Shown here: one piece after another, positions 3,293 through 40,199 of the stretch
Numbering within the stretch: the first letter of the stretch is position 1
Layout of the letters: the number at the start of each line of letters is the position of its first letter
Source of the DNA: a virus
Direction: 5' to 3' (one strand)
DNA length: 49,232 bases
Virus record (IMG/VR): IMGVR_UViG_3300037484_000744
Coordinates: 1-49,232 of that record
The notes under the pieces: model-generated
What the model was told of the DNA's origin: nothing
The model's database searches: none
The model's input: only the letters and a program-made list of their open reading frames with translations
Program-made: the position numbers and the translations under genes

Positions 3293-3556
3293 ATGCAAGC
3301 CAAAATGGTAACGTTTCTGAAGTACGTCCTCGCTGCGGCGCTGGCATCCATCACACCGGCCGCGCTGCAGGAACTCGGCGCGCCGGCAACGCTGCACGCC
3401 CTGATCATGGCAGGCATCGGCGCCGCGCTGATTCACCTGCGCACGCCCGGCACCGCCAAGCCCAAGTCCCTGGAGGCCGAGTACGCCACGGGTTACGCGG
3501 ACGGACAGTCGGACGCGAGTGAGGGCATCGACGCGTCGCCGGAGAGCCGCTCGTGA
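3293..3556 (+). CDS. Holin-like membrane protein (two predicted TM helices, charged C-terminus)
   Basis: Hydrophobic stretches VTFLKYVLAAALASITPAAL and ATLHALIMAGIGAALIHL; lies directly upstream of the lipoprotein and endolysin genes. Confidence 0.55.
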   Translation: MQAKMVTFLKYVLAAALASITPAALQELGAPATLHALIMAGIGAALIHLRTPGTAKPKSLEAEYATGYADGQSDASEGIDASPESRS

Positions 3557-3816
3557 GAGCCACCCCCTGGACGCGTCGCCGCGTGTCAATGCCGCGCACG
3601 GATCTAAGCGCCGTGTCGGCGCTGGCGTTCGCAATGCTGCTCGGGTGCGCCGCGTTGTTTGGGCCGGACGCGGACGCCGCGGACGCCATCATCACCGGCG
3701 CCAAGGCGCAGGATACTTTCTGTGCGGCGTACGCGCTCAACCCGGAATTGGTGCCGGCGGAGAAGCGCAAGGCGGTGGATGCCGTGTGCCGCGTGCATTG
3801 TGAGGCGCGGCCGTGA
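3553..3816 (+). CDS. Lipoprotein (lipobox LLGC), outer-membrane spanin-like
   Basis: GTGA-coupled start; signal peptide ending AFAMLLGC; short mature part with 3 further Cys; lysis-cassette position. Confidence 0.5.
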   Translation: MRATPWTRRRVSMPRTDLSAVSALAFAMLLGCAALFGPDADAADAIITGAKAQDTFCAAYALNPELVPAEKRKAVDAVCRVHCEARP

Positions 3817-3929
3817 CGGAAGCGGCCGTTAGCCGTCGCGTCCGCGCGTGGTTTTGGTTGGCGCGCCGGCTGCATCGCGCGTCACTGTGGTGTTCGGATC
3901 GCGGGCGTTGGGCGAAGGGAAACTCATGA
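3813..3929 (+). CDS. Possible 38-aa cationic Trp/Arg-rich peptide in the lysis cassette
   Basis: Below the ORF-track size cutoff. GTG overlaps the upstream TGA (GTGA) and its TGA overlaps the endolysin ATG (ATGA). Translation: VTEAAVSRRVRAWFWLARRLHRASLWCSDRGRWAKGNS. Confidence 0.3.
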   Translation: MTEAAVSRRVRAWFWLARRLHRASLWCSDRGRWAKGNS

Positions 3930-4633
3930 GCAAAGACTTCACCGGCGTCATTCGCGGCGCCACACCAGCGGGCACGGAGCGGATCAAGGTGGCGCAACGC
4001 AGGCTCGGTGTGGTTGACGACGGCGCGCTCGGGCCCGTCACCATCTCGTCCCTTCTGTACGCGTTGGCGGACATCCTGCCGGAGGCCGAGCAGCCTACGC
4101 AGCCGGCCACGCCGCGCGCCATGTCGGAAGCCGAGGCGCGCGCCCGCGTGGTGGCGTGGGCCCTCGCGCGCGTGGGCGAGTTGGACCCCGTCACCGAGGT
4201 GTGGCCGGGGATTTGTGACGATTTCGCGGTGCCGGCGTGCCGGCACACCAAAGCTTGGTGCGGCGGTTTCGTGCTGCGTGCGTGGCGGGACAACCTGCCG
4301 GGCTGCGCGGGTTGGAAGTGGGATGGGGGCTTCGCGTTGCAGTATGGCGTGAAACGCGTAGGTACGCCGGACGCGGGGGACCTTCGCATCAGCCAGTACG
4401 TGGAGCCGTACTACGACGCGCGCGGGTACCTCATCCGCCCAGCTGATGCGAGCGTGCAGATCTGGCACCACAGCTTGGTCACACGCGTGCGCGGCGACGG
4501 GAATTTGGACACCGTGGACGGCAACACCCTGCAGGGGTTCCGCAACGGGAAGCAACTCGAAGGTGTGACCACGCGCACCGTGCCGATCATCGGCACCGGC
4601 GTTGCGTACTACAGCATGGCCGCTTACGTGTGA
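3926..4633 (+). CDS. Endolysin: PG_binding_1-like domain plus NlpC/P60-CHAP-like (TIGR02594-like) amidase domain
   Basis: IKVAQRRLGVVDDGALGPVTISSL resembles the peptidoglycan-binding repeat. AWCGGFV ... HH ... DTVDGN resembles the Cys-His peptidase core. ATG at 3926 lies inside ORF 3848..4633. Confidence 0.75.
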   Translation: MSKDFTGVIRGATPAGTERIKVAQRRLGVVDDGALGPVTISSLLYALADILPEAEQPTQPATPRAMSEAEARARVVAWALARVGELDPVTEVWPGICDDFAVPACRHTKAWCGGFVLRAWRDNLPGCAGWKWDGGFALQYGVKRVGTPDAGDLRISQYVEPYYDARGYLIRPADASVQIWHHSLVTRVRGDGNLDTVDGNTLQGFRNGKQLEGVTTRTVPIIGTGVAYYSMAAYV

Positions 4634-7172: not shown

Positions 7173-8846
7173 ATGACCCTTGCCAAGGCCCTAGCCACGC
7201 GCGCGGACAGCTGGATCAACGCCATCACCGGAATGGGTGGCACGCGAGACAAGACCACTTACGGGGCGTTCGGGTGCGTGCGGCGACTCTCGGACCAGGA
7301 GTGCGCCAACATGTTCGCGGGCGAAGATCTCTCTGCGCGCATTTGCGATCTGTACCCACGCGAGGCCATGCGCGAAAGCTTCGAGCTCGGTGGCGTGAAC
7401 CCGGACGACGAGCACAAGGTGCGTCAGTTCTTGGAAGGGTGGGACGTGAACGGCACCATGGTGCGCGGTCTGATCTGGGGTCGCGTGTTCGGTGGCTCTG
7501 CGGCGTGGTGCGCCGCGGCAAACGCAGCGGATAACGCAAAGCCTTACCGCGAAGGCGAGCCGATCGGTTTCGTGCGCGTGCTGGACAAGCGCCATCTAAC
7601 ACCCACGGGCACGGACCTGGACGCGTATGGGCGCCCGACCGTGTACAACTTGCACAAGCCAGAGGGCACCGACCACATCATCGGGCAGGTGCACGCGTCG
7701 CGCCTGGTTGTTTTCCCGGGCGTGCTCACGGACGACCAAGCGCGCGCAGCAAACAACTACTGGGATTATTCTGCGCTGCAGCGGCCTTTTGCTGCGCTGC
7801 GTTCGGAGGGCACCATCTGGAACGCCGCAGAGCAACTCATCACGGAGGCGTCGATCGGCGTCATCAAGATCAAAAACCTGCACGCCATGGTGGCCGCGAA
7901 GCAGAAGGACCGGCTGATCGATCGCCTGCAAACGCTGGCGCTCGGCCGCAGCATCGCCAAACACATGACGCTCGACGCGGATAAGGAGGACTACTCCCGC
8001 GTAAACACCACGTTTGCCGGCGTCGCTGATTTGACGGACCGCAGCATCAAGCGCATCGCTATGGCGTCCGAGATCCCGGTGACGGTTCTCATGGGCGAAG
8101 CGCCCGCCGGGCTCAACGCGACAGGCGATTCGGACTTGCGTTGGTTCCTCATGCGCGTGCACGCGTACCAGGTATCCATCGTGCAAGCTCGACTTCTAAA
8201 GCTTGTGACGATGCTGTTGCGTCAGCCCGGCGCGCCTACGGTGGACTTCGAAAAATTGTGTGTCATTTGGCCGGACCTGTGGACGCCGAGTGCCAAGGAG
8301 CGCGCAGACCTGTACCTGGCCACAGCTAACGGGGATGCGGTGTACATCGATCGTCAGGTCGTTACGCCGGAGGAAATCGCGCTTTCTCGGTTCGGCTCGG
8401 ATGGGTACTCGCAAGAGACGCAGATCAGCCGCGAACTGCGCGAGCCGGACCCGGACGGTCTGCCCGAACTGACAGCGGGGGTGCCCGCCGCAGTAGGCGC
8501 AGCGCCCGCACCCGGCAGCGATGCAGGCGCGCCCGCAACGGAAGACGTGCAGAAGACAGCACTCAACGGCGCGCAGGTGGCCAGCTTGGTGGACGTTGTC
8601 AAGGCGGTGGTTGCGGAAGAAATCCCCCGCGATGCTGCGGTGGAAATCGTCGCGCTCGCGTACCAAGTAACTACGGCAGAAGCCAACCGGCTACTCGGTT
8701 CTGCGGGCAAAGGGTTCGTGGGCAAGGCGCCGGAACCGGCGCCCGTGTTCGGCGCGCCCCGGCCCCCGCCTGAGACCGAACCAGAAGAGCCCGCCGCACC
8801 GCCCGTGCCCAAGAAAAAGAAGACACCGCCCCCGGCGGAGGAATAG
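7173..8846 (+). CDS. Portal protein (DUF1073-type) with a Pro/Ala/Lys-rich C-terminal tail
   Basis: N-terminal SWINAITGMGGTRDKT signature; 557 aa; lies immediately after TerL. Confidence 0.85.
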   Translation: MTLAKALATRADSWINAITGMGGTRDKTTYGAFGCVRRLSDQECANMFAGEDLSARICDLYPREAMRESFELGGVNPDDEHKVRQFLEGWDVNGTMVRGLIWGRVFGGSAAWCAAANAADNAKPYREGEPIGFVRVLDKRHLTPTGTDLDAYGRPTVYNLHKPEGTDHIIGQVHASRLVVFPGVLTDDQARAANNYWDYSALQRPFAALRSEGTIWNAAEQLITEASIGVIKIKNLHAMVAAKQKDRLIDRLQTLALGRSIAKHMTLDADKEDYSRVNTTFAGVADLTDRSIKRIAMASEIPVTVLMGEAPAGLNATGDSDLRWFLMRVHAYQVSIVQARLLKLVTMLLRQPGAPTVDFEKLCVIWPDLWTPSAKERADLYLATANGDAVYIDRQVVTPEEIALSRFGSDGYSQETQISRELREPDPDGLPELTAGVPAAVGAAPAPGSDAGAPATEDVQKTALNGAQVASLVDVVKAVVAEEIPRDAAVEIVALAYQVTTAEANRLLGSAGKGFVGKAPEPAPVFGAPRPPPETEPEEPAAPPVPKKKKTPPPAEE

Positions 8847-8849
8847 CGC

Positions 8850-10019
8850 GTGGCCCTCGGCAAGCTAGCGGCGCAGCTCGAACTCCGCAAAGCGATCATG
8901 CGCGGCGCACGCCCCCCGCGCGCGGGCGTGGCCGCGGTGCGCCCGCCGGGCGCGCGCTTGTTCGAACGTGAGTACGAACGCCGCATGCTCGCCATGTGGG
9001 CGACGTTCCGCGAGCACGTGCACCGCGCCGCGCGGCAGGACCTGCGCTCGGACTCCACGGACTCTGACCTTCGGGATATCCTGCGCGTGCTGATGCGCGC
9101 AAGCGGCGTGCTGAATTGGCTAGACGGCAAAGCCGCGCAGACGCTGGACACGCAAGCGCGCTATGTGGAGCGAGTCACGCGCATCCCGCCCGCGGGCGCC
9201 CGCGCGGGAAGGCAAGCAGCAATCGAAGCTTTCCGAGAGGAGAACGCGCGCCTTATAACCCGCATGGGTGACGATCAGATTTCCCAGGTGATGGATCTGC
9301 TGCGCCCCGCGCAAGCAGTTGGCCAGCGGTGGGAGGAGTTGGCGCCGCAGATAGACAAGCGCCTGAACGTGGGTGCGTCGCGCGCCAAACTCATCGCGCG
9401 CGACCAGACGAACAAGTTCAACGGCAGCATGCAGCGCCTCACGCAAGAGGCGAGTGGCATCACCAAGTACCGGTGGAGCACGTCGCGTGATTTCGCGGTG
9501 CGCGGGCGCCCCGGTGGTGAGTACCCCACGGGGGAGGATCATTGGGTTTTAGAAGGGCAGGTCTTCACATGGGCTAACCCACCTTTAATTCCGGGCACAA
9601 GCGAACGCGCGCACCCGGGGCAACGCCCGCAGTGCCGCTGCGTGGCCACACCCGTGGTGGACTTTTTCGAGTCGTCCGGCGCGCCGCAGCGGACCATTTC
9701 CGTACCCGCGCCTACGCCTGTGGTTGAGGAGCCGCGCGTGGCAGAGTTACCTTCGCCCATTCCGCAGGACCTAACCAAGGGCGGCAAGCTACCTCTGCGC
9801 GCCACCAGCTTCGCGCACCTACGCGGGGGCGGCGCAGTCACGCAGGCGCTGCCAGTGTCGATCGCGGTGTACCCAGACGGCACGGTGTTCCCGCGTGACG
9901 GTCGACACCGCATCACGCTTGCGCGAGAGCGTGGCCAAAAGTTCATCGAAGGCGATGTGATTCGCGTGGGCAAACGCGGCGGGGAAAAAGTTGAGAAGAA
10001 AGTACGCATCCCGATATGA
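8850..10019 (+). CDS. MuF/SPP1 gp7-like minor head protein fused to a C-terminal ParB/sulfiredoxin-like domain
   Basis: MuF core ARDQTNKFNG...ITKYRWSTSRDFAVR...HPGQRPQCRCV; C-terminal PVSIAVYPDGTVFPRDGRHRITLARERG resembles the ParB N-terminal domain. Confidence 0.8.
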   Translation: MALGKLAAQLELRKAIMRGARPPRAGVAAVRPPGARLFEREYERRMLAMWATFREHVHRAARQDLRSDSTDSDLRDILRVLMRASGVLNWLDGKAAQTLDTQARYVERVTRIPPAGARAGRQAAIEAFREENARLITRMGDDQISQVMDLLRPAQAVGQRWEELAPQIDKRLNVGASRAKLIARDQTNKFNGSMQRLTQEASGITKYRWSTSRDFAVRGRPGGEYPTGEDHWVLEGQVFTWANPPLIPGTSERAHPGQRPQCRCVATPVVDFFESSGAPQRTISVPAPTPVVEEPRVAELPSPIPQDLTKGGKLPLRATSFAHLRGGGAVTQALPVSIAVYPDGTVFPRDGRHRITLARERGQKFIEGDVIRVGKRGGEKVEKKVRIPI

Positions 10020-10450
10020 CCGCGGACCGCTCACCCCTCGGGTATGCGCAGCACGAAGCCGCGCACGTAGTGGTAGGCGTGGCGGTCGGGTTGCGCTTGC
10101 GGCGCGCCACGCTGCAGCGTCACCAGGACTACGGCGCGTATGCCGAGTTCTGGGAAGGCGCGCGTGAGGGCATGCTGCTTATGTTCGCGGCGGGTGTAGC
10201 GTGGGAGCGCAGGTGCGGGGACCTGGGTGACGCGCGCTTTGACCTGCAGGAGATCCGCCGGATGCGGGTGAAAGGCAACGCACGCATCCGCGCCCTAGAG
10301 GTGGGGGCGTGGGCCATCCTGGCGGGGCGTGCGGGGGCACACGCGCGCGTGACGCGGGCGTTACTGGAGGGGGACCTCACGGCCCGGGAAATCGCACGGA
10401 TGGTGCGGGGTGCGCACCCGCACGCACACATTTTGGGGGACCCCTTTTGA
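10016..10450 (+). CDS. Small HEXXH metallopeptidase-like protein (FtsH/M41 peptidase-domain-like)
   Basis: ATGA-coupled to the MuF gene; HEAAH at residues 13-17, followed by ...AAGVAWERRCGDLGDARFDL, which resembles the M41 core. Confidence 0.55.
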   Translation: MTADRSPLGYAQHEAAHVVVGVAVGLRLRRATLQRHQDYGAYAEFWEGAREGMLLMFAAGVAWERRCGDLGDARFDLQEIRRMRVKGNARIRALEVGAWAILAGRAGAHARVTRALLEGDLTAREIARMVRGAHPHAHILGDPF

Positions 10451-10486
10451 CAAGCGCCGATTGCCCCGTATAACAGGAAGAGACCA

Positions 10487-10657
10487 ATGCAAACCATGCC
10501 GCCTTGTGCCGACACCGAGACCAAGCAAGCCGAGTTCGTTGCCCAGCTGAAAGCGAACCCCAACTATCGCCGCACCAACAGCGGCGTCATCACAGCGTGC
10601 GCCACGTGCGCCGCTGTGAACGGCGGCAAGGCTTGGCTAGAAGGGCAGAAGCCGTGA
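10487..10657 (+). CDS. Hypothetical 56-aa Cys-containing protein
   Basis: Below the track cutoff; RBS AGGAAGAGACC precedes the ATG; MQTMPPCADTETKQ...ACATCAAVNGGKAWLEGQKP. Confidence 0.4.
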   Translation: MQTMPPCADTETKQAEFVAQLKANPNYRRTNSGVITACATCAAVNGGKAWLEGQKP

Positions 10658-10749
10658 CCGACCGTCGGCATACAGCCATGTTCGCGATCGCTGTTTCGTT
10701 TGCAGCGGGCACCGCCGGTTGGGTGGCGCTGTGGCTGGTGCTGTCATGA
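10654..10749 (+). CDS. Possible 31-aa single-TM peptide
   Basis: GTGA overlap at its start and ATGA overlap at its end; hydrophobic FAIAVSFAAGTAGWVALWLVL. Confidence 0.3.
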   Translation: MTDRRHTAMFAIAVSFAAGTAGWVALWLVLS

Positions 10750-11579
10750 GCACGGTGGAGTGGCACTGCGCCGAGTGTGGGTACGCCGAGCGCTGCGCTA
10801 CGCCAGACTACGCTATTGGCGAGTGGGAGCCGTGCCCCAAGTGCTCTGGCCTCGCGCGCGTGCGCGCCGTGCGCGGGCGCAGGCCGCGCGCGTTTTGGGC
10901 GCTGGCGGTTACGCTGCTGGCGCTGGTCGGGTGCAGCGCTGCCCCGGGCGCGCACCGTCTGGAAGCGCAGGCGGTAATTGTCGAGGCGCCCACGGATGAC
11001 TCAGACCACGTCTTCCTCACCGCGCCGATCGACACCCGCGCCGTGGTAGTGCTGATCAGCGGGTACCAGCGCAAGTGCACCGGCGTGGCGGTGACGCCGT
11101 GGCACATCTACACGGCTGACCATTGCCTGCAGGATGCGGACGCGGTTGGTGTTCAGTCGACGCTACGATTTGTAACGGCGCAGCACTGGGCAGACCGCGG
11201 TGGGACGCTCGCGGCCAACGAGCCGCACACAACCACCGTGATCGCGCGTGACGCTGGGATGGATCGCGCGCTCCTGCAGTCGAGTGTCGAGCTCGAAGCT
11301 TTCCTAGACATTGCGCCGGTGCATCGCGACGAGTGGGTGTGGACCGTGGTGCAGCGCGACGCGAGGTGGGAGGCGCTATTGGACACGAGCGGGGAGCCCG
11401 GCAAGTTCGCTGCGAACGTACCTATCGACCACGGGGACAGCGGCGCACCGGTGATCAACGTGTATGGCCAGCTTGTCGGGATAACAACCAACTGCCTCAA
11501 CGATCACGAGATCGACAATCCGGCTACCAACTGCGACGGCGGCGGCAGGTGGCGCCCGTTCGCGATGTGGTATCAGTGA
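10746..11579 (+). CDS. Trypsin-like (S1) serine protease with an N-terminal zinc ribbon and a lipoprotein-type signal (LVGC)
   Basis: Catalytic motifs TADHC (His126), DRALL (Asp173) and GDSGAP (Ser232). The signal is RRPRAFWALAVTLLALVGC. The N-terminus has CAEC...CPKC. An internal GTG start just before the signal peptide is also possible. Confidence 0.75.
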   Translation: MSTVEWHCAECGYAERCATPDYAIGEWEPCPKCSGLARVRAVRGRRPRAFWALAVTLLALVGCSAAPGAHRLEAQAVIVEAPTDDSDHVFLTAPIDTRAVVVLISGYQRKCTGVAVTPWHIYTADHCLQDADAVGVQSTLRFVTAQHWADRGGTLAANEPHTTTVIARDAGMDRALLQSSVELEAFLDIAPVHRDEWVWTVVQRDARWEALLDTSGEPGKFAANVPIDHGDSGAPVINVYGQLVGITTNCLNDHEIDNPATNCDGGGRWRPFAMWYQ

Positions 11580-11776
11580 TGTACGGGTCGCGCAGAGAGG
11601 GCCGGCGAGTCCGCGCGCCCAAGCGGTGGACGCTGGAGTCTGCGTACGAGTTCGCTGGCCACGAGGTTAAGCGCATCGGGCGTCAGACATCGAACGGTGT
11701 TGACGTTCCGCCGCACGTGGCTGGTCGCCTCGTTACGTGGGCGCACGAGCGCGCCGCCGGTTTGCGGCAGAAATAA
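11579..11776 (+). CDS. Hypothetical basic protein (65 aa)
   Basis: TGATG coupling to the protease gene. Confidence 0.45.
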   Translation: MYGSRREGRRVRAPKRWTLESAYEFAGHEVKRIGRQTSNGVDVPPHVAGRLVTWAHERAAGLRQK

Positions 11777-11820
11777 AGCGCGTTCGTAGGGCGCGGATGC
11801 GTGCGTGCTAAGTTCAGCAC

Positions 11821-12915
11821 GTGCCTCAGAGATTCGATGCCGTGCAGATTTCGCGGGTAGAACGCACGCCCCTTGGTGGCCTGCGCATTCCCGCGATCCC
11901 GACGCGCGCCGGGGTGTACAAGTACACCGAGGTGGGCCCGGACGGCGCGTCCCGCGTGGTGTCCGAGTACCGCCCGCCGGAGGAAGTGGCGCGGGCCGAC
12001 TCGCTCGCGACGCTGGAAGACGTGCCGGTTACCATAGGTCATCCACCCGGTGGCGTTACCCCCGGCAACGCGCAGCGGCTCTCGGTCGGCCACGTGCGCG
12101 CCGCATCCGTGTCAGCCACACCCGCGGGTGACGTGAGTGCCACGCTGATTGTGAATGCGCGGGAAGCCGTGGACCGCGTGGACAGCAAGGACCTGTGCCG
12201 GCTGTCCAGCTCGTACGCAATGGTCATTGACCCCACGCCCGGCGTCACGCCGGACGGCCAGCGGTACGACCGCATTCAGCGCAACATCGTGTACAACCAC
12301 GTCGCACTTCTCAAGCCGGGGCAGGAACGGATCGCCGGGTGCGAGCTGCGCCTGGACTCGGCAGGCGAGCAGATTTTCCCCGAAGCATCAGAAGAAAGAC
12401 CCCCAGCCATGAAGATCAAAGTCAAGCGGGCCGATGGCGCCGTGGTCGAGGTGGAGAAAAACTCCGACGAGCACGTTGCCATTCTGGAAGCCAACGAAGC
12501 GGCGGCGCGCACCCGCGCGGACGCGGCGGACGCGGCGCAGGCGCAGGCGGACGCGGCGCGAGCCGAGCAGAACCGCGCAGCCCTCGTGACGCGCGCCAAG
12601 GCGCTTGGCGTTTCGGTGACGCGCAAGGACGCGGCCGGCGCCGAGGTGCAGCTTTCCGACCGAGAGATCAAAGTGGCCGCAATCAAGCGCACGGACTCTA
12701 GCTTCGATGACGCCGGACGCTCGGACGCGTACATCGACGGCCGATTCGATATGGTCAAGCCCGCCACCGCTGCCGCGCCCGAGGCTCCCCCGGCGGACCC
12801 CATCACCCGCGCGCTCGACGGCGCGCCCCCGGCCGCGGCTCGCGCGGACGCTGCTGACCCGCTCGTCCGGGTCAAAGAGATCCTCAGCAAGTGCCCGGGC
12901 GCTTGCCCGCTGTAA
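11821..12915 (+). CDS. DUF2213-type head scaffold / prohead protease-like protein
   Basis: N-terminal RTPLGGLRIPAIPTRAGVYKY...VTIGHP pattern; Ala/Asp/Gln-rich coiled-coil C-terminal half; sits between the portal/MuF genes and the capsid gene. Confidence 0.65.
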   Translation: MPQRFDAVQISRVERTPLGGLRIPAIPTRAGVYKYTEVGPDGASRVVSEYRPPEEVARADSLATLEDVPVTIGHPPGGVTPGNAQRLSVGHVRAASVSATPAGDVSATLIVNAREAVDRVDSKDLCRLSSSYAMVIDPTPGVTPDGQRYDRIQRNIVYNHVALLKPGQERIAGCELRLDSAGEQIFPEASEERPPAMKIKVKRADGAVVEVEKNSDEHVAILEANEAAARTRADAADAAQAQADAARAEQNRAALVTRAKALGVSVTRKDAAGAEVQLSDREIKVAAIKRTDSSFDDAGRSDAYIDGRFDMVKPATAAAPEAPPADPITRALDGAPPAAARADAADPLVRVKEILSKCPGACPL

Positions 12916-12930
12916 TACGAAGGACACGCC

Positions 12931-13416
12931 ATGCAAACGACTCAGCTCGCAGTTTACCCCGCCGCCCGCGCAGGCATGCTGCACGGCGATCAGCACCTCG
13001 CGACCATTCAAGGCGACAAGGTCGCGGAAGTCGCGATCGAACCCGGCCTTTTCGTCTGCCAAGGAACGGCGGCCGACGAGTGCAAGCTTCCCACCGCGAC
13101 TGGTGAGGTGACCGCGACCGGCCTCGGCTTCGCCTTGCTGCAGATGCACAAGGGCGCCAACGGCAGCGCGAATCACTACGCGATCGGCGACGCGGTCGCC
13201 ATCGTGAACCGAAGCCGCGGCTTCTACGCCATCGCTGGGGAGAACCTGGCGAAGCATGATCCGGTGTTCGTGGTGTTCGGCGCGACCGGCCGCGGCCGGG
13301 TGCGCAACGACGCCAGCTCCGGCGCAACGGAAGCCGTGCAGCTCCCCGGTGTGCGCGTGGCGGAAGCCGCGTCGTCCGGCGAAGCCGTCCTCATCGAACC
13401 CCTGCCTTTCGCGTAA
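12931..13416 (+). CDS. Head decoration/cement-like protein (DUF2190-like)
   Basis: 161-aa beta-rich protein immediately upstream of the capsid gene; the call rests on synteny and weak motif memory. Confidence 0.45.
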   Translation: MQTTQLAVYPAARAGMLHGDQHLATIQGDKVAEVAIEPGLFVCQGTAADECKLPTATGEVTATGLGFALLQMHKGANGSANHYAIGDAVAIVNRSRGFYAIAGENLAKHDPVFVVFGATGRGRVRNDASSGATEAVQLPGVRVAEAASSGEAVLIEPLPFA

Positions 13417-13430
13417 TCCCGGAGTCAGCC

Positions 13431-14432
13431 ATGCTTCAGTTTCAGAATAACCCCGCTCTCCTCACCTCGTTGGCGGCCGTCCTCGTGGCGGCGGGCGTGG
13501 TCGACCCCGCTAAGCCGGTGCGCCAAGACGCAGCGGCCGATACCCTGTACCTCGCGCGCGAACTCGAGTTCGTTTCGGCGCAGTCGTACGAGGTGTTGGT
13601 CGACCCGATCAAGGGCCGGCAATTCGTCCCGTTCTCCTGGATCGTGCCCGATGGCGCTGAGACGTACGGCTACGACATGTACGATGGTTTCGCGAGTGCG
13701 GCCTGGATCACGGACGGTGCAAGCGCAGTCGGGAACGCGGACGCGTTCAAGACCCGCACGAGCCGCAAGACGTACATGTTCGGCAGCTCGTACAAGTACA
13801 ACATTCAGGAGCTCGCCGCGGCGCAGATGGCTGGCGGTCGCCCGCTGGACCGGGAGCGCGCGCGGTTCTGCCGCATCGGTCACGAACAGTTCCTCGAGAC
13901 GCTGATCGCGGAAGGCGACACGGAGCGCAGCATCGAAGGCCTCACCAACAGCACGACCATTCCGGACGTGGCGCCGGTGGTTGGCACGTGGGACGCCAGC
14001 ACCAGCACCACGGACCTCATGAAGGACCTGGACGCGCTGGTTCAGGCGCCTGAGCAGACTTCGAAGCAGAACTTCAAGGCCGACACCTTGATCCTCCCAC
14101 TGTCCGTCAAGCCACTGCTCCGGCAGATCTTCTCCACCACGGACCCCCGCACGGTGGAAAAGGTTTGGCTCGCGAACCAAGACGCCGATGGCGTCAAGGT
14201 GATCGAGTACTGGAACAAGCTGGACGACGCCTCGGCGCTCAGTGGACCGAAGGGCCTCGCGTTCAAGAAGTCCAACATGGTGTTCGAGTTCCTTGGCTCG
14301 TACGATTTCCGTGAGCTGCCACCGCAGCAGAGCGGTTTCTGGTTCCAGATCTTGACCTACGCCAACGTGGTTGGGCTCTGCTTCCGGTACCCCCTGGCCA
14401 TGGCCCAGATGGATCTGGACGCGTCCCCGTAA
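13431..14432 (+). CDS. Major capsid protein (DUF2184-type, HK97 fold)
   Basis: 333 aa; N-terminal LTSLAA...LYLARELEF pattern; canonical synteny DUF1073 portal - DUF2213 - DUF2184. Confidence 0.8.
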   Translation: MLQFQNNPALLTSLAAVLVAAGVVDPAKPVRQDAAADTLYLARELEFVSAQSYEVLVDPIKGRQFVPFSWIVPDGAETYGYDMYDGFASAAWITDGASAVGNADAFKTRTSRKTYMFGSSYKYNIQELAAAQMAGGRPLDRERARFCRIGHEQFLETLIAEGDTERSIEGLTNSTTIPDVAPVVGTWDASTSTTDLMKDLDALVQAPEQTSKQNFKADTLILPLSVKPLLRQIFSTTDPRTVEKVWLANQDADGVKVIEYWNKLDDASALSGPKGLAFKKSNMVFEFLGSYDFRELPPQQSGFWFQILTYANVVGLCFRYPLAMAQMDLDASP

Positions 14433-32563: not shown

Positions 32564-32782
32564 TCATCGGGCCTCCTGCCACCAACACGACTCGGTACTA
32601 CAGCGGAATGTCACAGGCCGCCCGGCGAGCACGCCATCGCACACGCTGTGTTCGCCATTCCAACACTGATAGTAGCCGATGCCCATGCGCGCGGCGAACT
32701 CGGCCTGTACCACGCGTTGGGAAGCGTAGTCCTCCTCTGACATGCACGCGCACAGGAGGAGCGCCAGCAGGGCGCGCTTCAC
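32564..32782 (-). CDS. Small Cys-rich lipoprotein (lipobox LLLC)
   Basis: GTG start coupled (GTGA) to the oxygenase stop; VKRALLALLLCAC signal; six further Cys in the mature part. Confidence 0.5.
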   Translation of the reverse strand: MKRALLALLLCACMSEEDYASQRVVQAEFAARMGIGYYQCWNGEHSVCDGVLAGRPVTFRCSTESCWWQEAR

Positions 32783-33723
32783 TCGTACACCCGTGAGCGC
32801 GCAAGGCGTTCTTTGAGCCACTCGCCGACGGTCGCCGGGCGCCACGTGTTCTCCACCGTTTGCCCGCCGCGCGCGCTAGTCATCGGCAACCGCGCCGCGT
32901 GCGACGGCATAGCGAAGTAAACGATCGACTGCTGAGTGTACGGCCGCGCCGGCACGCGGTGAGGGGTCGCCGGGCCGAGGCCTACGAGCTCGCCGATTTC
33001 GCCGATGTGCAAGCCGGGGGACATGCGCATCGCCTCTTGCACGAGGCGCCGCTGTTCGGGCGAATAACCGCGCGTGTCTAGGGCGCTACCGATCCCGAAG
33101 CATGACGAGTCCGCCTCGGGCAACACTTCGCCGCACCGGTTACACGAGGGTGGTGTCGAGTCACCAAGTCCGCCCAAGTCGTGCGCAAGATACTTGCCGG
33201 CTTTGATTCCGATCTGCAAATCCTCGAGCGTGCTTCGGTAGCAAACGATCGTAAACAGATCGAAGTCCGTGTGCTCCGGCTGAAACCCACCCGACTGGTA
33301 CTCGAGTACGCGCAACGTGCCATCTTCGGGGCGGGGGTAATAGGCGTCCGGCACGTCGAGCGCCGTCGCCACTTTGCACGCCTCCCAGTGCGCGCGGGCC
33401 AAGTAGGCGCGGGCCCACTCCGGGGGGTTGTACTTTTCCGCCACGTGAAGATAACGCGCGGTGTCGGGCGCGACGTTCGGTACGCGGCCGCTATCGGCGC
33501 ACGTTGGGCACACCAGCGGTGGATCGTAACCGTGGCCGTTGCACGTCGCGCACTCCCGCGTATCCCCGTTCGGCGCCTCCTTCACGGCGGGGCGATAGCC
33601 GGGGTACACGGGCGCGCCCGCGCCTTGCCCGCCGGCTTCATCATCGCGAGCGAACAAGGTCGCGAGGCGTGCGTGGTCTTGCGCATTTAAAATCATTTGC
33701 CCGCCTTTCGTGGGCGTGTACAT
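32779..33723 (-). CDS. 2OG-Fe(II) oxygenase-superfamily protein with an inserted zinc-finger module and a Cys-containing insertion
   Basis: RBS AAGGAGACC precedes the ATG at 33723. LRVLEY...PEHTDFDLFTIV supplies H-x-D, and LHIGEIGELV...ATPHRV supplies the distal His. SIVYFAMP follows, with Gln where Arg is usual. CATCNGHG...CPTCADSG lies near the N-terminus. Confidence 0.7.
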   Translation of the reverse strand: MYTPTKGGQMILNAQDHARLATLFARDDEAGGQGAGAPVYPGYRPAVKEAPNGDTRECATCNGHGYDPPLVCPTCADSGRVPNVAPDTARYLHVAEKYNPPEWARAYLARAHWEACKVATALDVPDAYYPRPEDGTLRVLEYQSGGFQPEHTDFDLFTIVCYRSTLEDLQIGIKAGKYLAHDLGGLGDSTPPSCNRCGEVLPEADSSCFGIGSALDTRGYSPEQRRLVQEAMRMSPGLHIGEIGELVGLGPATPHRVPARPYTQQSIVYFAMPSHAARLPMTSARGGQTVENTWRPATVGEWLKERLARSRVYE

Positions 33724-36995: not shown

Positions 36996-39900
36996 TTACT
37001 TACGGTACCTTTCACCTGTGAACCCATCGCAGTCGATGGGGAAATCGTATGCCCACTGTGGCAGTTCCAGCATGCACTCGTCAAGGGTACGCGCTGCGAT
37101 TTTGCGCAGTGCACGCGGCACCTCGGCACCCGCGCTGTCATGGATGTGGATCACCATCTTGAGCCCGCGCCGTTCCGCACGCACGAGTGCGGCGGCGAGC
37201 AGGCACCGGCACATGGCCTGCACTGCGTTCTCCGTGAGCTTCCCCCCGTAGGTCCAATCGACGCCGCGATGCCCGTCGAACACGATGCCACCGGGGCGCC
37301 GGTTACCTTCCAGTCCCTTTTTGGTGAGAGCCTCATTCGCGAGAGTTGCATCACGCCGCGAGGCGAAACGCATTCCGGGGTACAGGACGAACCTACCACT
37401 CGGCAGAATAAGTGCAACGTCCTTCCCGTCACTTTCGAAACGGAACATGTTGCGCAGGCCACACAAGCCGGTGTGGCCCCCGATGGCGTCCTTAGCCGCG
37501 TTCTCTATGTCGGCCCAAAATTGGACGATCGGCGCGTGCACCTCGCGCCACGTGTCCACCACGGTCTGCCCATCCGTGCCCACGTCCGCCAGCGTCTTCC
37601 CGATCTTCGCTAGTTCCTTGTCTGCGTTGGACTGGAACTTTCGCGCGCCGGCACCGTACCCCAGCATGAGCTCTGCGATCTTGCCGATCTGTCGGCGCTC
37701 GTCCTTGCCAATCTCCTCCACCGGGACACCGAAGATGCGGCTAGCCATGGCCTTGTACGGGTCCGCGCCACTCGCCACCACGGCCAGCGCCGCAGCGTCT
37801 TCCGCTGTCCAGGCAAGCCCGCGCGCTTCGACCCCCTTGAAGTCGCGCTCAACGAACACGCACCCTGGCTCCGCATACAGGCACGCGCGCAGCAACATGG
37901 GCATCTCGAGCGGGTGCACGTGCGCGCCCGCAATCACGTCACGCACACGGCGCCGAATGTCCTTGTCGGTCCACTTCTCAAAAATGTCGTCAGGGCGTGT
38001 GAGGTTGTGCGGCTGCAACCCAACGCCTGCCCACCTACCGGTATTGTGCGTTACAATATACCCTCGAGTGATGTACAAATGGTCACTAGCCTCGACTTCG
38101 ATGCACGTCGATTCCTCGACCCCATCTTTTTCGACGCTCACAACCGCACGCCACGGAGCGCGCCTAGTTCCCGTCCAACGTCGAGCCTTTCTCTCGAGAC
38201 CAAAGGGACACACATCAACGGGTATGTGACAGTTTACCGAGTATATTACGCCGTCACCGAGGCGTTCAACGTATGCGCGCGCCGTGCCACCGATAGACTG
38301 AACGAGCTCAATCACTGCGTCTCGCAAGTGTGGCGAACACGTCGCGTACTTTACGACTCCCGGGCTCTTTGCGGAACCATCCGTATCAAAAAGCCCACGC
38401 AAAAGCTCAACACGCGCTGCGAAGGACGCCAAACCATACTCTGGCGGAATGAACTTCGTGAACGAGTCGTGCCCCCAAAGTCCAAGGCCTTCGAGTGCTA
38501 CACGTAAAGGGTTACGCCGCCTAGGCGGTAGCGGCTCGCCTCTGCGAACAAGTGCGTAGTAGCAACCCACGCACAAGCCTCGAACGGCTCGGCCGCCATG
38601 CCCGCACGAAGTGGCGTTAGCTGTACTGATAACGAATCGGTAGTGAAAAGCCTTCTTTCCGGGTACAGGCCGCACGACCGCGCGCACCCCGTTCAACTGG
38701 AATCTTGCTGCGATCTCGGGGTCGCCTGACGTGAAACGCGGGCAGTCACCCACCATACAACCGTCACCAAGGAGTGCCCCTAGCGTGTACGGGTCAATTG
38801 GCAGTACGTCGGGCCGTTCCGTTCGGTCGGCCACAAACGGAACGGTGTACCGGTGCCTTTTGCCGTACGACAAATCCCCCAGGTCCCTAAGGCGTATTAC
38901 ACGTGGCTTACCGCACGCACGCACACTCCACAAGTGCTCTGCGTCACACCTAGTCCACGAACCATCAGAGAATGTAACGCGGTATACCTGTCGCAACCCC
39001 TGCGGGTAAGTTCCTGCGACACGCGTCGGTCCTGTACGGCCTTGAATGACGTCACCCACTCGCAACTCGCCCATGGCAACCCACCCCAATGGCGTTCGAA
39101 CGGGCTCGGAGTTGGGCTGCGCGTGCGCGGCCCAGTACTTGAACATGTCCCGCAACCGGCCGTCGGGGGACACGCGCGCGATGCCGGCTTCAAGCTTTCC
39201 TCTTACGATGCTGGCTAGCGCCGTCCGCGCCTGCACCAACTCCCGCACGGCGCGCTTGGGGTGGTGCTCGTACTGCTCCACCTCGTCCGCGGTGGCGCTG
39301 TGGCAGTCGGTGGCGCCGCTCTCCCGCATCCACTTGCAGAACGTGGCGGCGTGTCGGATGCCGGACACGAACAGGCGCTCCGTCGCGAACTTGACGATCG
39401 CGGGGTTGGGCACCTTGCCGTCCGGCGCGTGCTGCTTCTGCAGCCGGCGCATGGTGTTGGTGTCGGGGTTAGTGATGCGCGCGCCAAGGTGCCGCAACCA
39501 CTCCACCGTTTCGCGCTTGTCCAGCACCCGCGGGTCCACGCCCACACCCTCGGCGCCGTGCCGCGCGTCCTCACGCAGCAGGGCCTTAGCAAGCGCCACG
39601 TCGAAGCAGATCCCGCGATCGTTGATCAGCCGGTCCACTTCCTCCGCATCGGTCTCCACGTCCAGGAAGTCCTCCAGGAACGGCCAGAGCCCGACCGTGC
39701 CGGTCAAGTCGTCTCGACAATACGCCATTACGCGGCGCAGCACCTCCGGGGTGATTAGTGGCAGCTGCCCCAGGCGCGCCTTGGCCTTGCTCGGCTGACT
39801 CAGACGCAGCGTGAAGGCGTTGCCCTCCTTGTCCTTCCTGCGCCCGAGCAGCCGCGTCAGAAGCTTGTCCAGCGAACCTGGGTACCCCGCGCGCGCGGCG

Positions 39901-40199
39901 AGGTGCATGGTGTCGATGTAGCGCCGCGGCTCCGGCCAGCCGAGCCGGCGCCACGCATGCCGATCGAACGTCATCATGTTGTGCGCGGCCACAGCGTCCG
40001 GCCGCGTGCGCCCGTAAGGGCACCGGTCCCCCGGTGCCCACTCCACGATCTCGCCTTCCACCTGCAGCACCGCGCAGATGACTTCGGCAGTGGGATGTTC
40101 CCAGTAGGCGCGCCCCCCGATCTTTTTCAGGTCACACTGCGACTTGTCCGCGCGGGACTCGAAGTCGACGAAATCGGGGGTGCGCGCCGTGCCGGGCAT
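36996..40199 (-). CDS. Family A DNA polymerase with a 3'-5' exonuclease domain, interrupted by an intein
   Basis: Exo I FVDFES; pre-motif ...KYWAAHA[intein]TGRWAGVGLQPHNL; motif A VERDFKGVEARGLAW; motif B RRQIGKIAELMLGYGAG; motif C IHIHDS. Confidence 0.9.
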   Translation of the reverse strand: MPGTARTPDFVDFESRADKSQCDLKKIGGRAYWEHPTAEVICAVLQVEGEIVEWAPGDRCPYGRTRPDAVAAHNMMTFDRHAWRRLGWPEPRRYIDTMHLAARAGYPGSLDKLLTRLLGRRKDKEGNAFTLRLSQPSKAKARLGQLPLITPEVLRRVMAYCRDDLTGTVGLWPFLEDFLDVETDAEEVDRLINDRGICFDVALAKALLREDARHGAEGVGVDPRVLDKRETVEWLRHLGARITNPDTNTMRRLQKQHAPDGKVPNPAIVKFATERLFVSGIRHAATFCKWMRESGATDCHSATADEVEQYEHHPKRAVRELVQARTALASIVRGKLEAGIARVSPDGRLRDMFKYWAAHAQPNSEPVRTPLGWVAMGELRVGDVIQGRTGPTRVAGTYPQGLRQVYRVTFSDGSWTRCDAEHLWSVRACGKPRVIRLRDLGDLSYGKRHRYTVPFVADRTERPDVLPIDPYTLGALLGDGCMVGDCPRFTSGDPEIAARFQLNGVRAVVRPVPGKKAFHYRFVISTANATSCGHGGRAVRGLCVGCYYALVRRGEPLPPRRRNPLRVALEGLGLWGHDSFTKFIPPEYGLASFAARVELLRGLFDTDGSAKSPGVVKYATCSPHLRDAVIELVQSIGGTARAYVERLGDGVIYSVNCHIPVDVCPFGLERKARRWTGTRRAPWRAVVSVEKDGVEESTCIEVEASDHLYITRGYIVTHNTGRWAGVGLQPHNLTRPDDIFEKWTDKDIRRRVRDVIAGAHVHPLEMPMLLRACLYAEPGCVFVERDFKGVEARGLAWTAEDAAALAVVASGADPYKAMASRIFGVPVEEIGKDERRQIGKIAELMLGYGAGARKFQSNADKELAKIGKTLADVGTDGQTVVDTWREVHAPIVQFWADIENAAKDAIGGHTGLCGLRNMFRFESDGKDVALILPSGRFVLYPGMRFASRRDATLANEALTKKGLEGNRRPGGIVFDGHRGVDWTYGGKLTENAVQAMCRCLLAAALVRAERRGLKMVIHIHDSAGAEVPRALRKIAARTLDECMLELPQWAYDFPIDCDGFTGERYRK
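38043..39122 (-). mobile_element. Intein (about 359 aa) with a LAGLIDADG homing-endonuclease domain; class-3-like signature
   Basis: Ends ...YIVTHN followed by T of TGRW; LGALLGDGC and LLRGLFDTDGS are LAGLIDADG blocks. No Cys/Ser at the N-terminal junction (AHA/QPNSEP). G+C and codon usage are visibly lower than in the flanking extein. The N-terminal boundary is uncertain by 1-2 codons. Confidence 0.8.

Follow-up and report, generated by a model that had tools for sequence, protein, structure and literature searches.

A probable accessory-gene islet encoding two predicted peptidases at the MuF-scaffold junction of an uncultured myovirus

Introduction

The stretch of viral DNA considered here, IMG/VR record IMGVR_UViG_3300037484_000744 (hereafter 'the window', meaning its whole length of 49,232 bp), is a complete metagenomic contig with a G+C content of approximately 65%. 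Between the genes for a MuF-like minor head protein and a DUF2213-type scaffold protein, its + strand carries five open reading frames (ORFs A to E), which an earlier reading of the letters (the 'sequence-only reading') had proposed to be a translationally coupled protease cassette inserted into an otherwise canonical head operon. The five ORFs, together with the coordinates, motifs and start/stop overlaps attributed to them, were all found in the sequence. The genes and features of the locus are:

10016-10450, + strand: ORF A, 144 amino acids (aa), predicted FtsH/M41-type zinc-peptidase domain (homologues, invariant motif, AlphaFold2 (AF2) model)
10487-10657, + strand: ORF B, 56 aa, small conserved protein (exact sequence present in the protein collection)
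10654-10749, + strand: ORF C, 31 aa, hydrophobic, transmembrane (TM)-like mini-ORF in the 88-nt B-D spacer (G+C content at third codon positions (GC3) 0.69)
10746-11579, + strand: ORF D, 277 aa (Trypsin_2 match; 20 homologous clusters)
10746-10859, + strand: ORF D residues 1-38, predicted cytoplasmic CxxC...CxxC zinc ribbon (similarity to the homologue P0124, AF2, GC3 0.84)
10860-10934, + strand: ORF D residues 39-63, predicted lipoprotein signal peptide, RAVRGRRPR followed by AFWALAVTLLALVG and Cys63
10935-11579, + strand: predicted mature part of ORF D, a tether of about 30 aa and then a trypsin-fold domain without PDZ
11579-11776, + strand: ORF E, 65 aa, basic ORFan with 14 Arg/Lys against 6 Asp/Glu (GC3 0.76)

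Each junction but that between A and B is an overlap of stop and start codons: ATGA at 10016 for MuF and ORF A (as read from the sequence), GTGA at 10654 for B and C, ATGA at 10746 for C and D, and TGATG at 11577-11581 for D and E. Overlaps of this kind are commonplace in phage operons, and do not by themselves tie the genes to one function, as had been supposed.

ORF A, a predicted stand-alone M41-type peptidase domain

The product of ORF A, in which an HEAAH motif occupies residues 13-17, had been likened to the M41/FtsH peptidases, and both structure prediction and structural comparison agree on that fold. Its 195 homologues (105-186 aa) include none with a Pfam domain or an informative name ('hypothetical protein' at most, in jgi annotations). 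An alignment of the family (n = 42) leaves A11, H13, E14, A15, H17, V19, V20, G21, G25, A59, G60, D76 and L116 invariant; Asp76 lies within a predicted helix (residues 73-82 of the AF2 model) and is likely to be the third zinc ligand. The model itself has a predicted local distance difference test score (pLDDT) of 90.5 and a predicted template modelling score (pTM) of 0.84, and its top 25 Foldseek matches in the PDB are, with the exception of two 5iqj chains, chains of FtsH, AFG3L2, YME1 and FtsHi, with query-normalized template modelling scores (TMq) of 0.56-0.73. Because the homologue alignment, the model and the FtsH-type PDB matches all point the same way, ORF A is best described as a predicted stand-alone M41-fold peptidase domain. 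It is not an FtsH.

The resemblance to FtsH, AFG3L2 and YME1 extends over the whole domain (the TMq range just given); it takes in the first helix, which bears HEXXH, the beta hairpin after it, a helix with 'AAG.AWER' as the counterpart of 'GGR.AEE' in FtsH, and the invariant Asp on the next helix. In contrast to those enzymes, ORF A is a phage-encoded protein of 144 aa that consists of the peptidase domain only, with neither an AAA+ ATPase module nor an N-terminal membrane anchor, and it has no Pfam match at E-values up to 0.1, PF01434 included. When its profile was aligned by hhalign with an approximate sequence of the Escherichia coli FtsH protease domain, only 41 columns were paired (P 1e-3), corresponding to the HEXXH helix (HEAGH in FtsH) and the hairpin that follows it. 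A closer match in size is offered by PDB entry 5IQJ, a Vibrio cholerae protein of 134 aa with an N-terminal HExxH helix (HESAHTVIAQVLG), which is the best sequence-profile match of ORF A in the PDB as well as a Foldseek match; it differs in being bacterial, the similarity is weak (profile E 0.46, TMq 0.45-0.47), and no paper on this protein was found. Among viral predicted structures (BFVD) the sole clear match is a full-length FtsH from a giant virus, the fold being shared by no phage protein in that collection, and no relatives were found among INPHARED phages or GTDB genomes.

ORF D, a predicted lipoprotein serine protease

ORF D had been described as a trypsin-fold (S1) serine protease with a complete catalytic triad, a zinc ribbon and a lipobox, and that description has held. 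Pfam assigns it to Trypsin_2 (1.1e-8; 36.4 bits against a cut-off of 27.6) and to Trypsin (26.9 bits, cut-off 20.6), and an exhaustive HMMER search of 1.84 billion cluster representatives recovered only 21 clusters of the family. His126, Asp173 and Ser232 (codons 11121-11123, 11262-11264 and 11439-11441) are invariant in 12 family members, in an alignment that also keeps C111, T123, A124, C127, G230 and G233; the lipobox Cys63, C250 and C263 are retained in at least 90% of the 12, and the closer homologues have C250, C263 and a C-terminal GGG.WRP motif without exception. A loss of catalytic residues in homologues, which would have spoken against the sequence-only reading, was looked for, and the residues are kept in every homologue examined. 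The AF2 model (pLDDT 80) comprises zinc-ribbon beta strands (pLDDT 85-93), a helix at 48-64, a disordered tether at 65-90 (below 50) and a trypsin fold, most of which lies at approximately 80-96. Foldseek returns 1495 PDB matches at E-values up to 1e-3, the best of them HtrA, DegS, DegQ and Rv3671c (7e-9 to 1e-7), while the NCBIfam HtrA/DegS models reach only 13-17 bits against cut-offs above 400. No PDZ domain is detected by Pfam, and the protein ends about 45 residues past Ser232. On the strength of these alignments and models, ORF D is predicted to be an HtrA/DegS-like trypsin-fold protease that lacks PDZ.

Its N-terminal region begins with a CxxC...CxxC zinc ribbon (residues 8-34), followed by a predicted lipoprotein signal, RAVRGRRPR-AFWALAVTLLA-LVGC63, which consists of a charged n-region, a hydrophobic stretch and a lipobox (LVGC, with the Cys63 codon at 10932-10934) that conforms to the consensus [LVI][ASTVI][GAS]C. 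Most homologues (P0002, P0003, P0125-P0129) start right at such a signal, and the protein collection holds ORF D itself only as a 239-aa version that starts at GTG 10860 (P0001), with no exact sequence of the 277-aa form. One homologue, P0124, which is 39% identical to ORF D, carries the zinc ribbon as well, with its lipobox Cys at residue 69; the two N-termini are 49% identical (tblastn E 4e-10). Since an equivalent zinc ribbon is in frame in P0124, ATG 10746 is a credible start, with GTG 10860 as the alternative. The stand-alone CxxC...CxxC protein of approximately 60-80 aa that follows a small TM protein, upstream of DUF2213, in two relatives (L009 and L012) was considered as a source of the zinc ribbon, but such a descent is not established, the alignment having failed to superpose the cysteines.

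Compared with the HtrA family (DegS, DegP/DegQ, MucD) and with Rv3671c/MarP, ORF D shares the trypsin fold, the His-Asp-Ser triad and (by prediction) a location in the envelope. It differs from them in its want of a PDZ domain, in a predicted lipid anchor where they have a TM helix or a soluble form, in GDSG rather than GNSGG around the serine, in an S1A-like Cys111-Cys127 pair beside the catalytic His, in the zinc-ribbon N-terminus and in a C.GGG.WRP tail. Because the cysteine pairs (Cys111-Cys127 and Cys250/Cys263) and the lipobox are both conserved, an exported, oxidizing location would fit. The family is rare and apparently restricted to phages: every context examined is phage-like. The IMG/VR scans gave no match to ORF D, and the single match in the GTDB scan covers 31 residues in a metagenome-assembled genome of a member of the Clostridia.

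The small ORFs

ORF B, preceded by a Shine-Dalgarno-like AGGAAGAG and with a GC3 of 0.77, is a real gene. A hidden Markov model (HMM) of it finds matches in the window and in L007, L009, L012, L016/17 and L019, with independent matches in L008, L022 and L023, so that at least seven independent loci carry it, with a 'TMPP' motif near the N-terminus common to the homologues. It mostly lies 3' of A, and in three loci it immediately precedes a D-type protease. The label 'Cys protein' that it had been given does not suit the family, in which its three cysteines vary.

ORFs C and E, counted in the sequence-only reading as members of the cassette, show no conservation. Searches of 5.8 billion proteins and of 1.07 Mb of related loci gave no homologue of either, their exact sequences are missing from the protein collection, and the B-D junctions of L016/17 and L019 lack C. 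Coding-like GC3 and overlapping start/stop codons are what speaks for them, and both are doubtful genes.

Positions of A, B and D in related phages

In the five closest relatives (L007, L009, L010, L011 and L012) the gene order is TerL - portal - MuF - A - 0.1-1.3 kb of variable sequence - DUF2213 - cement - capsid. In all five, and in the short contigs L022, L023, L025 and L052, A lies immediately 3' of MuF, with no D in the junction. Behind A, the loci L007, L009, L012, L022 and L023 carry first B and next a TM-anchored protein (150-190 aa); the slot after B in L007, L009 and L012 also holds a small TM protein, joined in L009 and L012 by the zinc-ribbon protein mentioned above, and contains no protease. 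The TM-anchored proteins (L007 6663-7184, L009 7649-8110, L012 approximately 7600-8087) have a conserved 'LHxFHxSD...HxHPW' and no Pfam match. Within the clade closest to the window, A (usually with B) is thus a resident of the MuF-scaffold junction, and the five ORFs are not a cassette that was inserted there as one block. The possibility raised beforehand, that the block is a conserved part of the head module in relatives, applies in part to A and B and does not apply to D.

Over a wider range of phages the junction is variable. Among 80 IMG/VR head modules of this type, A occupies the MuF-DUF2213 junction in four and is lacking from it in the other 76. MuF mostly lies within approximately 200 nt of DUF2213, and because wider gaps are taken up by unrelated genes or by MuF proteins of greater length, the junction qualifies as a variable one; its content also differs among the five closest relatives, the window and the 80 modules. 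Elsewhere, A is found in early regions, 3' of a phosphoesterase or methylase gene (L013, L015, L027, L133 and L135), and the phage represented by L015 and L053 has a MuF-DUF2213 junction without A.

ORF D is found at at least five genomic positions, and in accordance with the claim that it is no fixed part of head morphogenesis, its homologues adjoin genes for polymerase A or for oxygenase-like, dGTP-diphosphohydrolase-like, phosphoesterase or endolysin-like proteins:

L001-L005: D adjoins a 2-oxoglutarate (2OG)-oxygenase-like gene, 55% identical to window 32782-33696
L019: D lies 3' of dGTP_diPhyd_N and a B homologue, approximately 1.2 kb from an endolysin-like gene
L027: phosphoesterase - D - A
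L013: D adjoins an endolysin-like gene
L133: D lies 3' of DNA polymerase A
L134: D lies 5' of a methylase
L016/L017: order A-B-D, with D only 39% identical

In L001, L133, L134 and L135, D stands amid early or replication genes. The 2OG-oxygenase-like protein (window 32779-33723, - strand; L001 3591-4358; 255-314 aa) is immediately followed by D in L001-L005; in the L001 version a DnaJ-like CxxCxGxG zinc motif stands at the N-terminus, and the C-terminal part of that version looks 2OG-Fe(II)-oxygenase-like by eye.

A and D had been seen as a pair, and closeness of the two is commoner than expected by chance. A is found within 4 kb of D in seven independent loci (the window, L016/17, L013, L015, L027, L133 and L135). 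Among the loci retrieved via D, A is visible in 4 of 7, against 1.05 expected under random placement (Poisson-binomial P 0.010, or 0.042 without the window), on the assumptions of 50-kb genomes, random placement and an A in every genome; three further loci retrieved via A also hold a D-type protease. Conversely, L001 (8.5 kb), L019 and L134 have D but no A, most A loci (including L006-L012 and L031-L044) have no D in the stretch fetched, and the two genes differ from locus to locus in how they are ordered, spaced and oriented relative to each other. The pattern of positions is suggestive of a functional link.

Neighbouring head and lysis genes

The genes that flank the five ORFs, and a further group upstream that is likely to be the lysis cassette (3293-4633), are:

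8850-10019, + strand: MuF-like minor head protein (PF04233 2.4e-11; phrog_324 1.5e-45)
11821-12915, + strand: DUF2213 / Pa193_gp24-type scaffold protein (PF09979 1.6e-30; phrog_530 8.9e-63)
3293-3556: holin-like protein, 87 aa, two hydrophobic stretches (lysis cassette)
3553-3816: lipoprotein, 87 aa, lipobox LLGC (lysis cassette)
3848-4633: endolysin-like gene (lysis cassette), 87% identical to an L019 homologue that has a weak PG_binding_3 match

Pfam and PHROGs also place a portal (PF06381), a cement protein (PF22758) and a major capsid protein (PF09950) in the flanks. The capsid protein shows no more than 28% identity to those of INPHARED phages among the records listed, and the phage therefore has no cultured close relative there; searches of INPHARED phages with the whole region, with D and with A (blastn, tblastn) found no match. 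Rfam and tRNA scans were empty. The 87-aa lipoprotein of the lysis cassette suggests a diderm host.

The DUF2213 protein had been taken to fill the prohead-protease slot. That assignment goes back to its PHROGs annotation as a head maturation protease, and the corresponding Pa193 protein, gp24, is regarded as a putative scaffolding protein that is 'possibly cleaved after assembly', by a protease which the same paper does not name (PMC11456595). A DUF2213 profile matched no PDB sequence.

The MuF protein has a C-terminal extension of approximately 110 aa (9690-10019, residues approximately 280-389), which is kept in L009; L011 has a segment that matches it, placed upstream of the main match to MuF. 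A part of the extension, 'DGRHRITLARERG', looked ParB/Srx-like by eye, a likeness discarded for want of any such match in Pfam.

Inverted repeats and other features of the window

A perfect inverted repeat of 20 nt encloses the 3' part of A together with B to E:

10278-10297, unstranded: arm 1 (ACGCACGCATCCGCGCCCTA), inside ORF A
11787-11806, unstranded: arm 2, in the 44-nt spacer that separates ORF E from DUF2213, 15-34 nt 5' of the latter's start

In 100 second-order Markov simulations no repeat of this length arose within 2 kb (range 13-18), and the arms are predicted to form an RNA duplex of -43.5 kcal/mol. A long-range RNA stem conserved in the clade was rejected, relatives showing only 8-9 nt of complementarity, and an assembly artefact is unlikely, both arms lying in otherwise unique, colinear sequence. 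The repeat may be a recombination footprint or an RNA stem specific to the window.

A second perfect inverted repeat, of 22 nt (GCGGAAGACGCTGCGGCGCTGG), has its arms 35 kb apart at 2340-2361 and 37784-37805 (the simulation maximum being 19 nt), one of them in the DNA polymerase gene. That gene (36996-40199, - strand) encodes a family A polymerase of 1067 aa with a weak LAGLIDADG_3 match at residues 597-645, which, at 21.6 bits against a cut-off of 22.5, suggests that an intein or a homing endonuclease is inserted there. Positions 1178-1963 encode a pentapeptide-repeat protein (PF00805, 3e-39), with a homologue in L019.

A probable islet of two layers

The host phage of these genes is an uncultured myovirus of approximately 49 kb with a head module of the E217/Pa193 type. 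The reading that we favour, with a probability of roughly 0.55, is that the five ORFs mark an 'accessory-gene islet' at the MuF/scaffold junction, and are neither machinery for capsid maturation nor a single five-gene cassette. One layer of the islet is conserved in the clade and consists of A, a predicted cytoplasmic peptidase domain, usually with the small partner B. The other is mobile and consists of D, whose fusion to a zinc ribbon is seen in the window phage and in one distant relative. As would be expected of 'morons' and similar islets, presence and absence of these genes vary among relatives that are otherwise syntenic. The judgment that the combination of genes matches no described system is borne out by PADLOC, NCBIfam, PHROGs, INPHARED and the literature searched, in none of which it was encountered.

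The islet would be translated from the late head mRNA by coupling through the ATGA, GTGA and TGATG overlaps. D would then be inserted via Sec, with the zinc ribbon staying in the cytoplasm, and would receive its lipid at Cys63 and be cleaved by signal peptidase II, leaving the mature protease on a flexible tether of approximately 30 residues in the periplasm; a Ser at position +2 would, by the sorting rule of E. coli, direct it to the outer membrane. Because it has no PDZ gate, D would cleave host envelope proteins constitutively, and its purpose would most likely be, instead of lysis, receptor inactivation or some other conditioning of the envelope that excludes superinfecting phages or protects the progeny. 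A would act in the cytoplasm, and its frequent closeness to D suggests that the two are functionally linked.

The nearest precedents for such a role are phage lipoproteins that block superinfection (Llp of T5, Cor of phi80 and N15) and the late-operon morons bor and lom of lambda (drawn in part from PMC3594210). D resembles these as a (predicted) exported phage lipoprotein and as a dispensable extra gene amid essential ones. It differs in being a predicted enzyme with no promoter or terminator detected, where they are small, non-enzymatic receptor blockers or outer-membrane proteins that often have a promoter of their own. In PMC8235301, a phage-derived metzincin and a TIMP-like lipoprotein of Listeria are described as a pair that alters the host envelope, the lipoprotein inhibiting the secreted metalloprotease. 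The likeness in kind is that of an envelope-directed protease and lipoprotein of phage origin; in the window the metallopeptidase is (by prediction) cytoplasmic, and the lipoprotein is itself the serine protease.

Several observations weigh against this interpretation. No sigma-70-like promoter was found in 8800-13500, nor a + strand terminator-like site in the gaps of the islet, and because neither delimits it, the islet is not a classical, self-contained moron. With ATG 10746 as the start, the lipobox Cys falls at residue 63, which is unusually far in for a lipoprotein (the usual position being approximately 15-35, as with residue 25 from GTG 10860), and the +2 sorting rule may not hold in the host. 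In the closest relatives A is coupled translationally to MuF, which a role in the head or virion would fit as well, and the closeness of A and D could reflect nothing other than accessory genes sharing hot spots. The model also leaves the 20-nt inverted repeat around the islet unaccounted for.

Alternative explanations

A first alternative, the sequence-only reading in its strong form, which we consider unlikely, is that B and the small ORFs belong with A and D to a single co-selected proteolytic system that spans the envelope: D would make the first, periplasmic cut in a host transmembrane protein and A would degrade the cytoplasmic part so released, in a phage mimic of regulated proteolysis (directed, for example, at an anti-sigma factor, a receptor or a defence sensor). 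The seven independent loci with A within 4 kb of D (P approximately 0.01-0.04) are what such a system would produce, as are the recurrence of the A-B-D order with a D only 39% identical and the direct adjacency of D and A in L027; the nearest structural relatives of D are DegS/HtrA, and its zinc ribbon could be a docking site. The same survey, however, yielded the many A loci with no D in the stretch fetched, the three D loci without A and the differences in order, spacing and strand, and to these must be added the lack of conservation of C and E and the absence from A of any membrane segment that would hold it at the membrane.

A role for A in the head or virion appears no more probable than that system. 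A (possibly with B) would here be a peptidase of the head or virion, which processes MuF, the DUF2213 scaffold or internal proteins, or is ejected with MuF, with D as an unrelated passenger. MuF proteins are carriers of packaged effector domains, as in the MuF polymorphic toxins, and in the window and nine relative loci A comes immediately after MuF, whose stop codon overlaps the start of A. The possible post-assembly cleavage of Pa193 gp24 by a protease left unnamed (PMC11456595) would give such an enzyme a substrate. Yet the location is far from constant: A sits in early or replication regions in five loci (L013, L015, L027, L133, L135), the junction of the L015 phage (L053) does without it, and so do 76 of the 80 phages with this head module; the DUF2213 protein, moreover, already bears the PHROGs label of head maturation protease. 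No prohead protease is known to have an M41 fold. The recognized prohead proteases (of the HK97 gp4, ClpP/S49 and T4 gp21 types) have other folds and resemble the two enzymes only in their place between portal/MuF and scaffold/capsid, whereas D has an export signal and at least six genomic contexts and A is mostly absent from the junction.

Slightly less probable again is a role for D as an accessory to lysis, in which it would cut the tethers between outer membrane and peptidoglycan or activate a peptidoglycan hydrolase. Mycobacterial MarP (Rv3671c), which activates RipA, is among the best structural matches of D; the window's D would, judging from its position, be expressed with the late genes; and D adjoins an endolysin-like gene in L013 and comes within approximately 1.2 kb of one in L019. 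Set against this, the window has its separate cassette at 3293-4633, for which reason exclusion or receptor inactivation is preferred to lysis: with holin-like, lipoprotein and endolysin-like genes of its own, the phage does not need D as a spanin-type lysis lipoprotein, and D, an enzyme of 239-277 aa located 6 kb from the genes of that cassette, does not look like one. The placement of D among early genes in several relatives (L001, L133, L134 and L135) is a further reason why host conditioning or exclusion fits better, and D is missing at the site from close relatives that share the head and lysis genes.

More improbable still is a proteolytic 'relay' in which D, as a constitutively active, PDZ-less, DegS-like protease, would cut a host transmembrane protein on the periplasmic side and an ATP-independent A would either destroy the cytoplasmic remnant or dock on, and re-programme, the FtsH of the host. 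A reading of the genes as a defence system was rejected, PADLOC and NCBIfam giving only marginal protease-motif matches (Avs1b, RT-protease, DegS) far below the cut-offs.

Significance

The picture of a 'five-gene cassette' is corrected here: A and B are a conserved pair, the protease D is mobile, and C and E are doubtful mini-ORFs. The recurrent closeness of A and D provides a concrete hypothesis of linked function. Were the relay to prove true, the zinc ribbon of D and the B protein would become its coupling or regulatory pieces, and the whole a viral hijack of regulated envelope proteolysis. Accessory genes inside the structural operons of phages are known, and both of the enzymes found in this islet are unusual versions. 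D would be a rare case of a phage that exports a protease into the envelope of its host, with the destruction of receptors or the exclusion of other phages as possible outcomes. A, if active, would show M41 peptidase action without its ATPase, and could represent a new phage route to host proteostasis or to FtsH itself.

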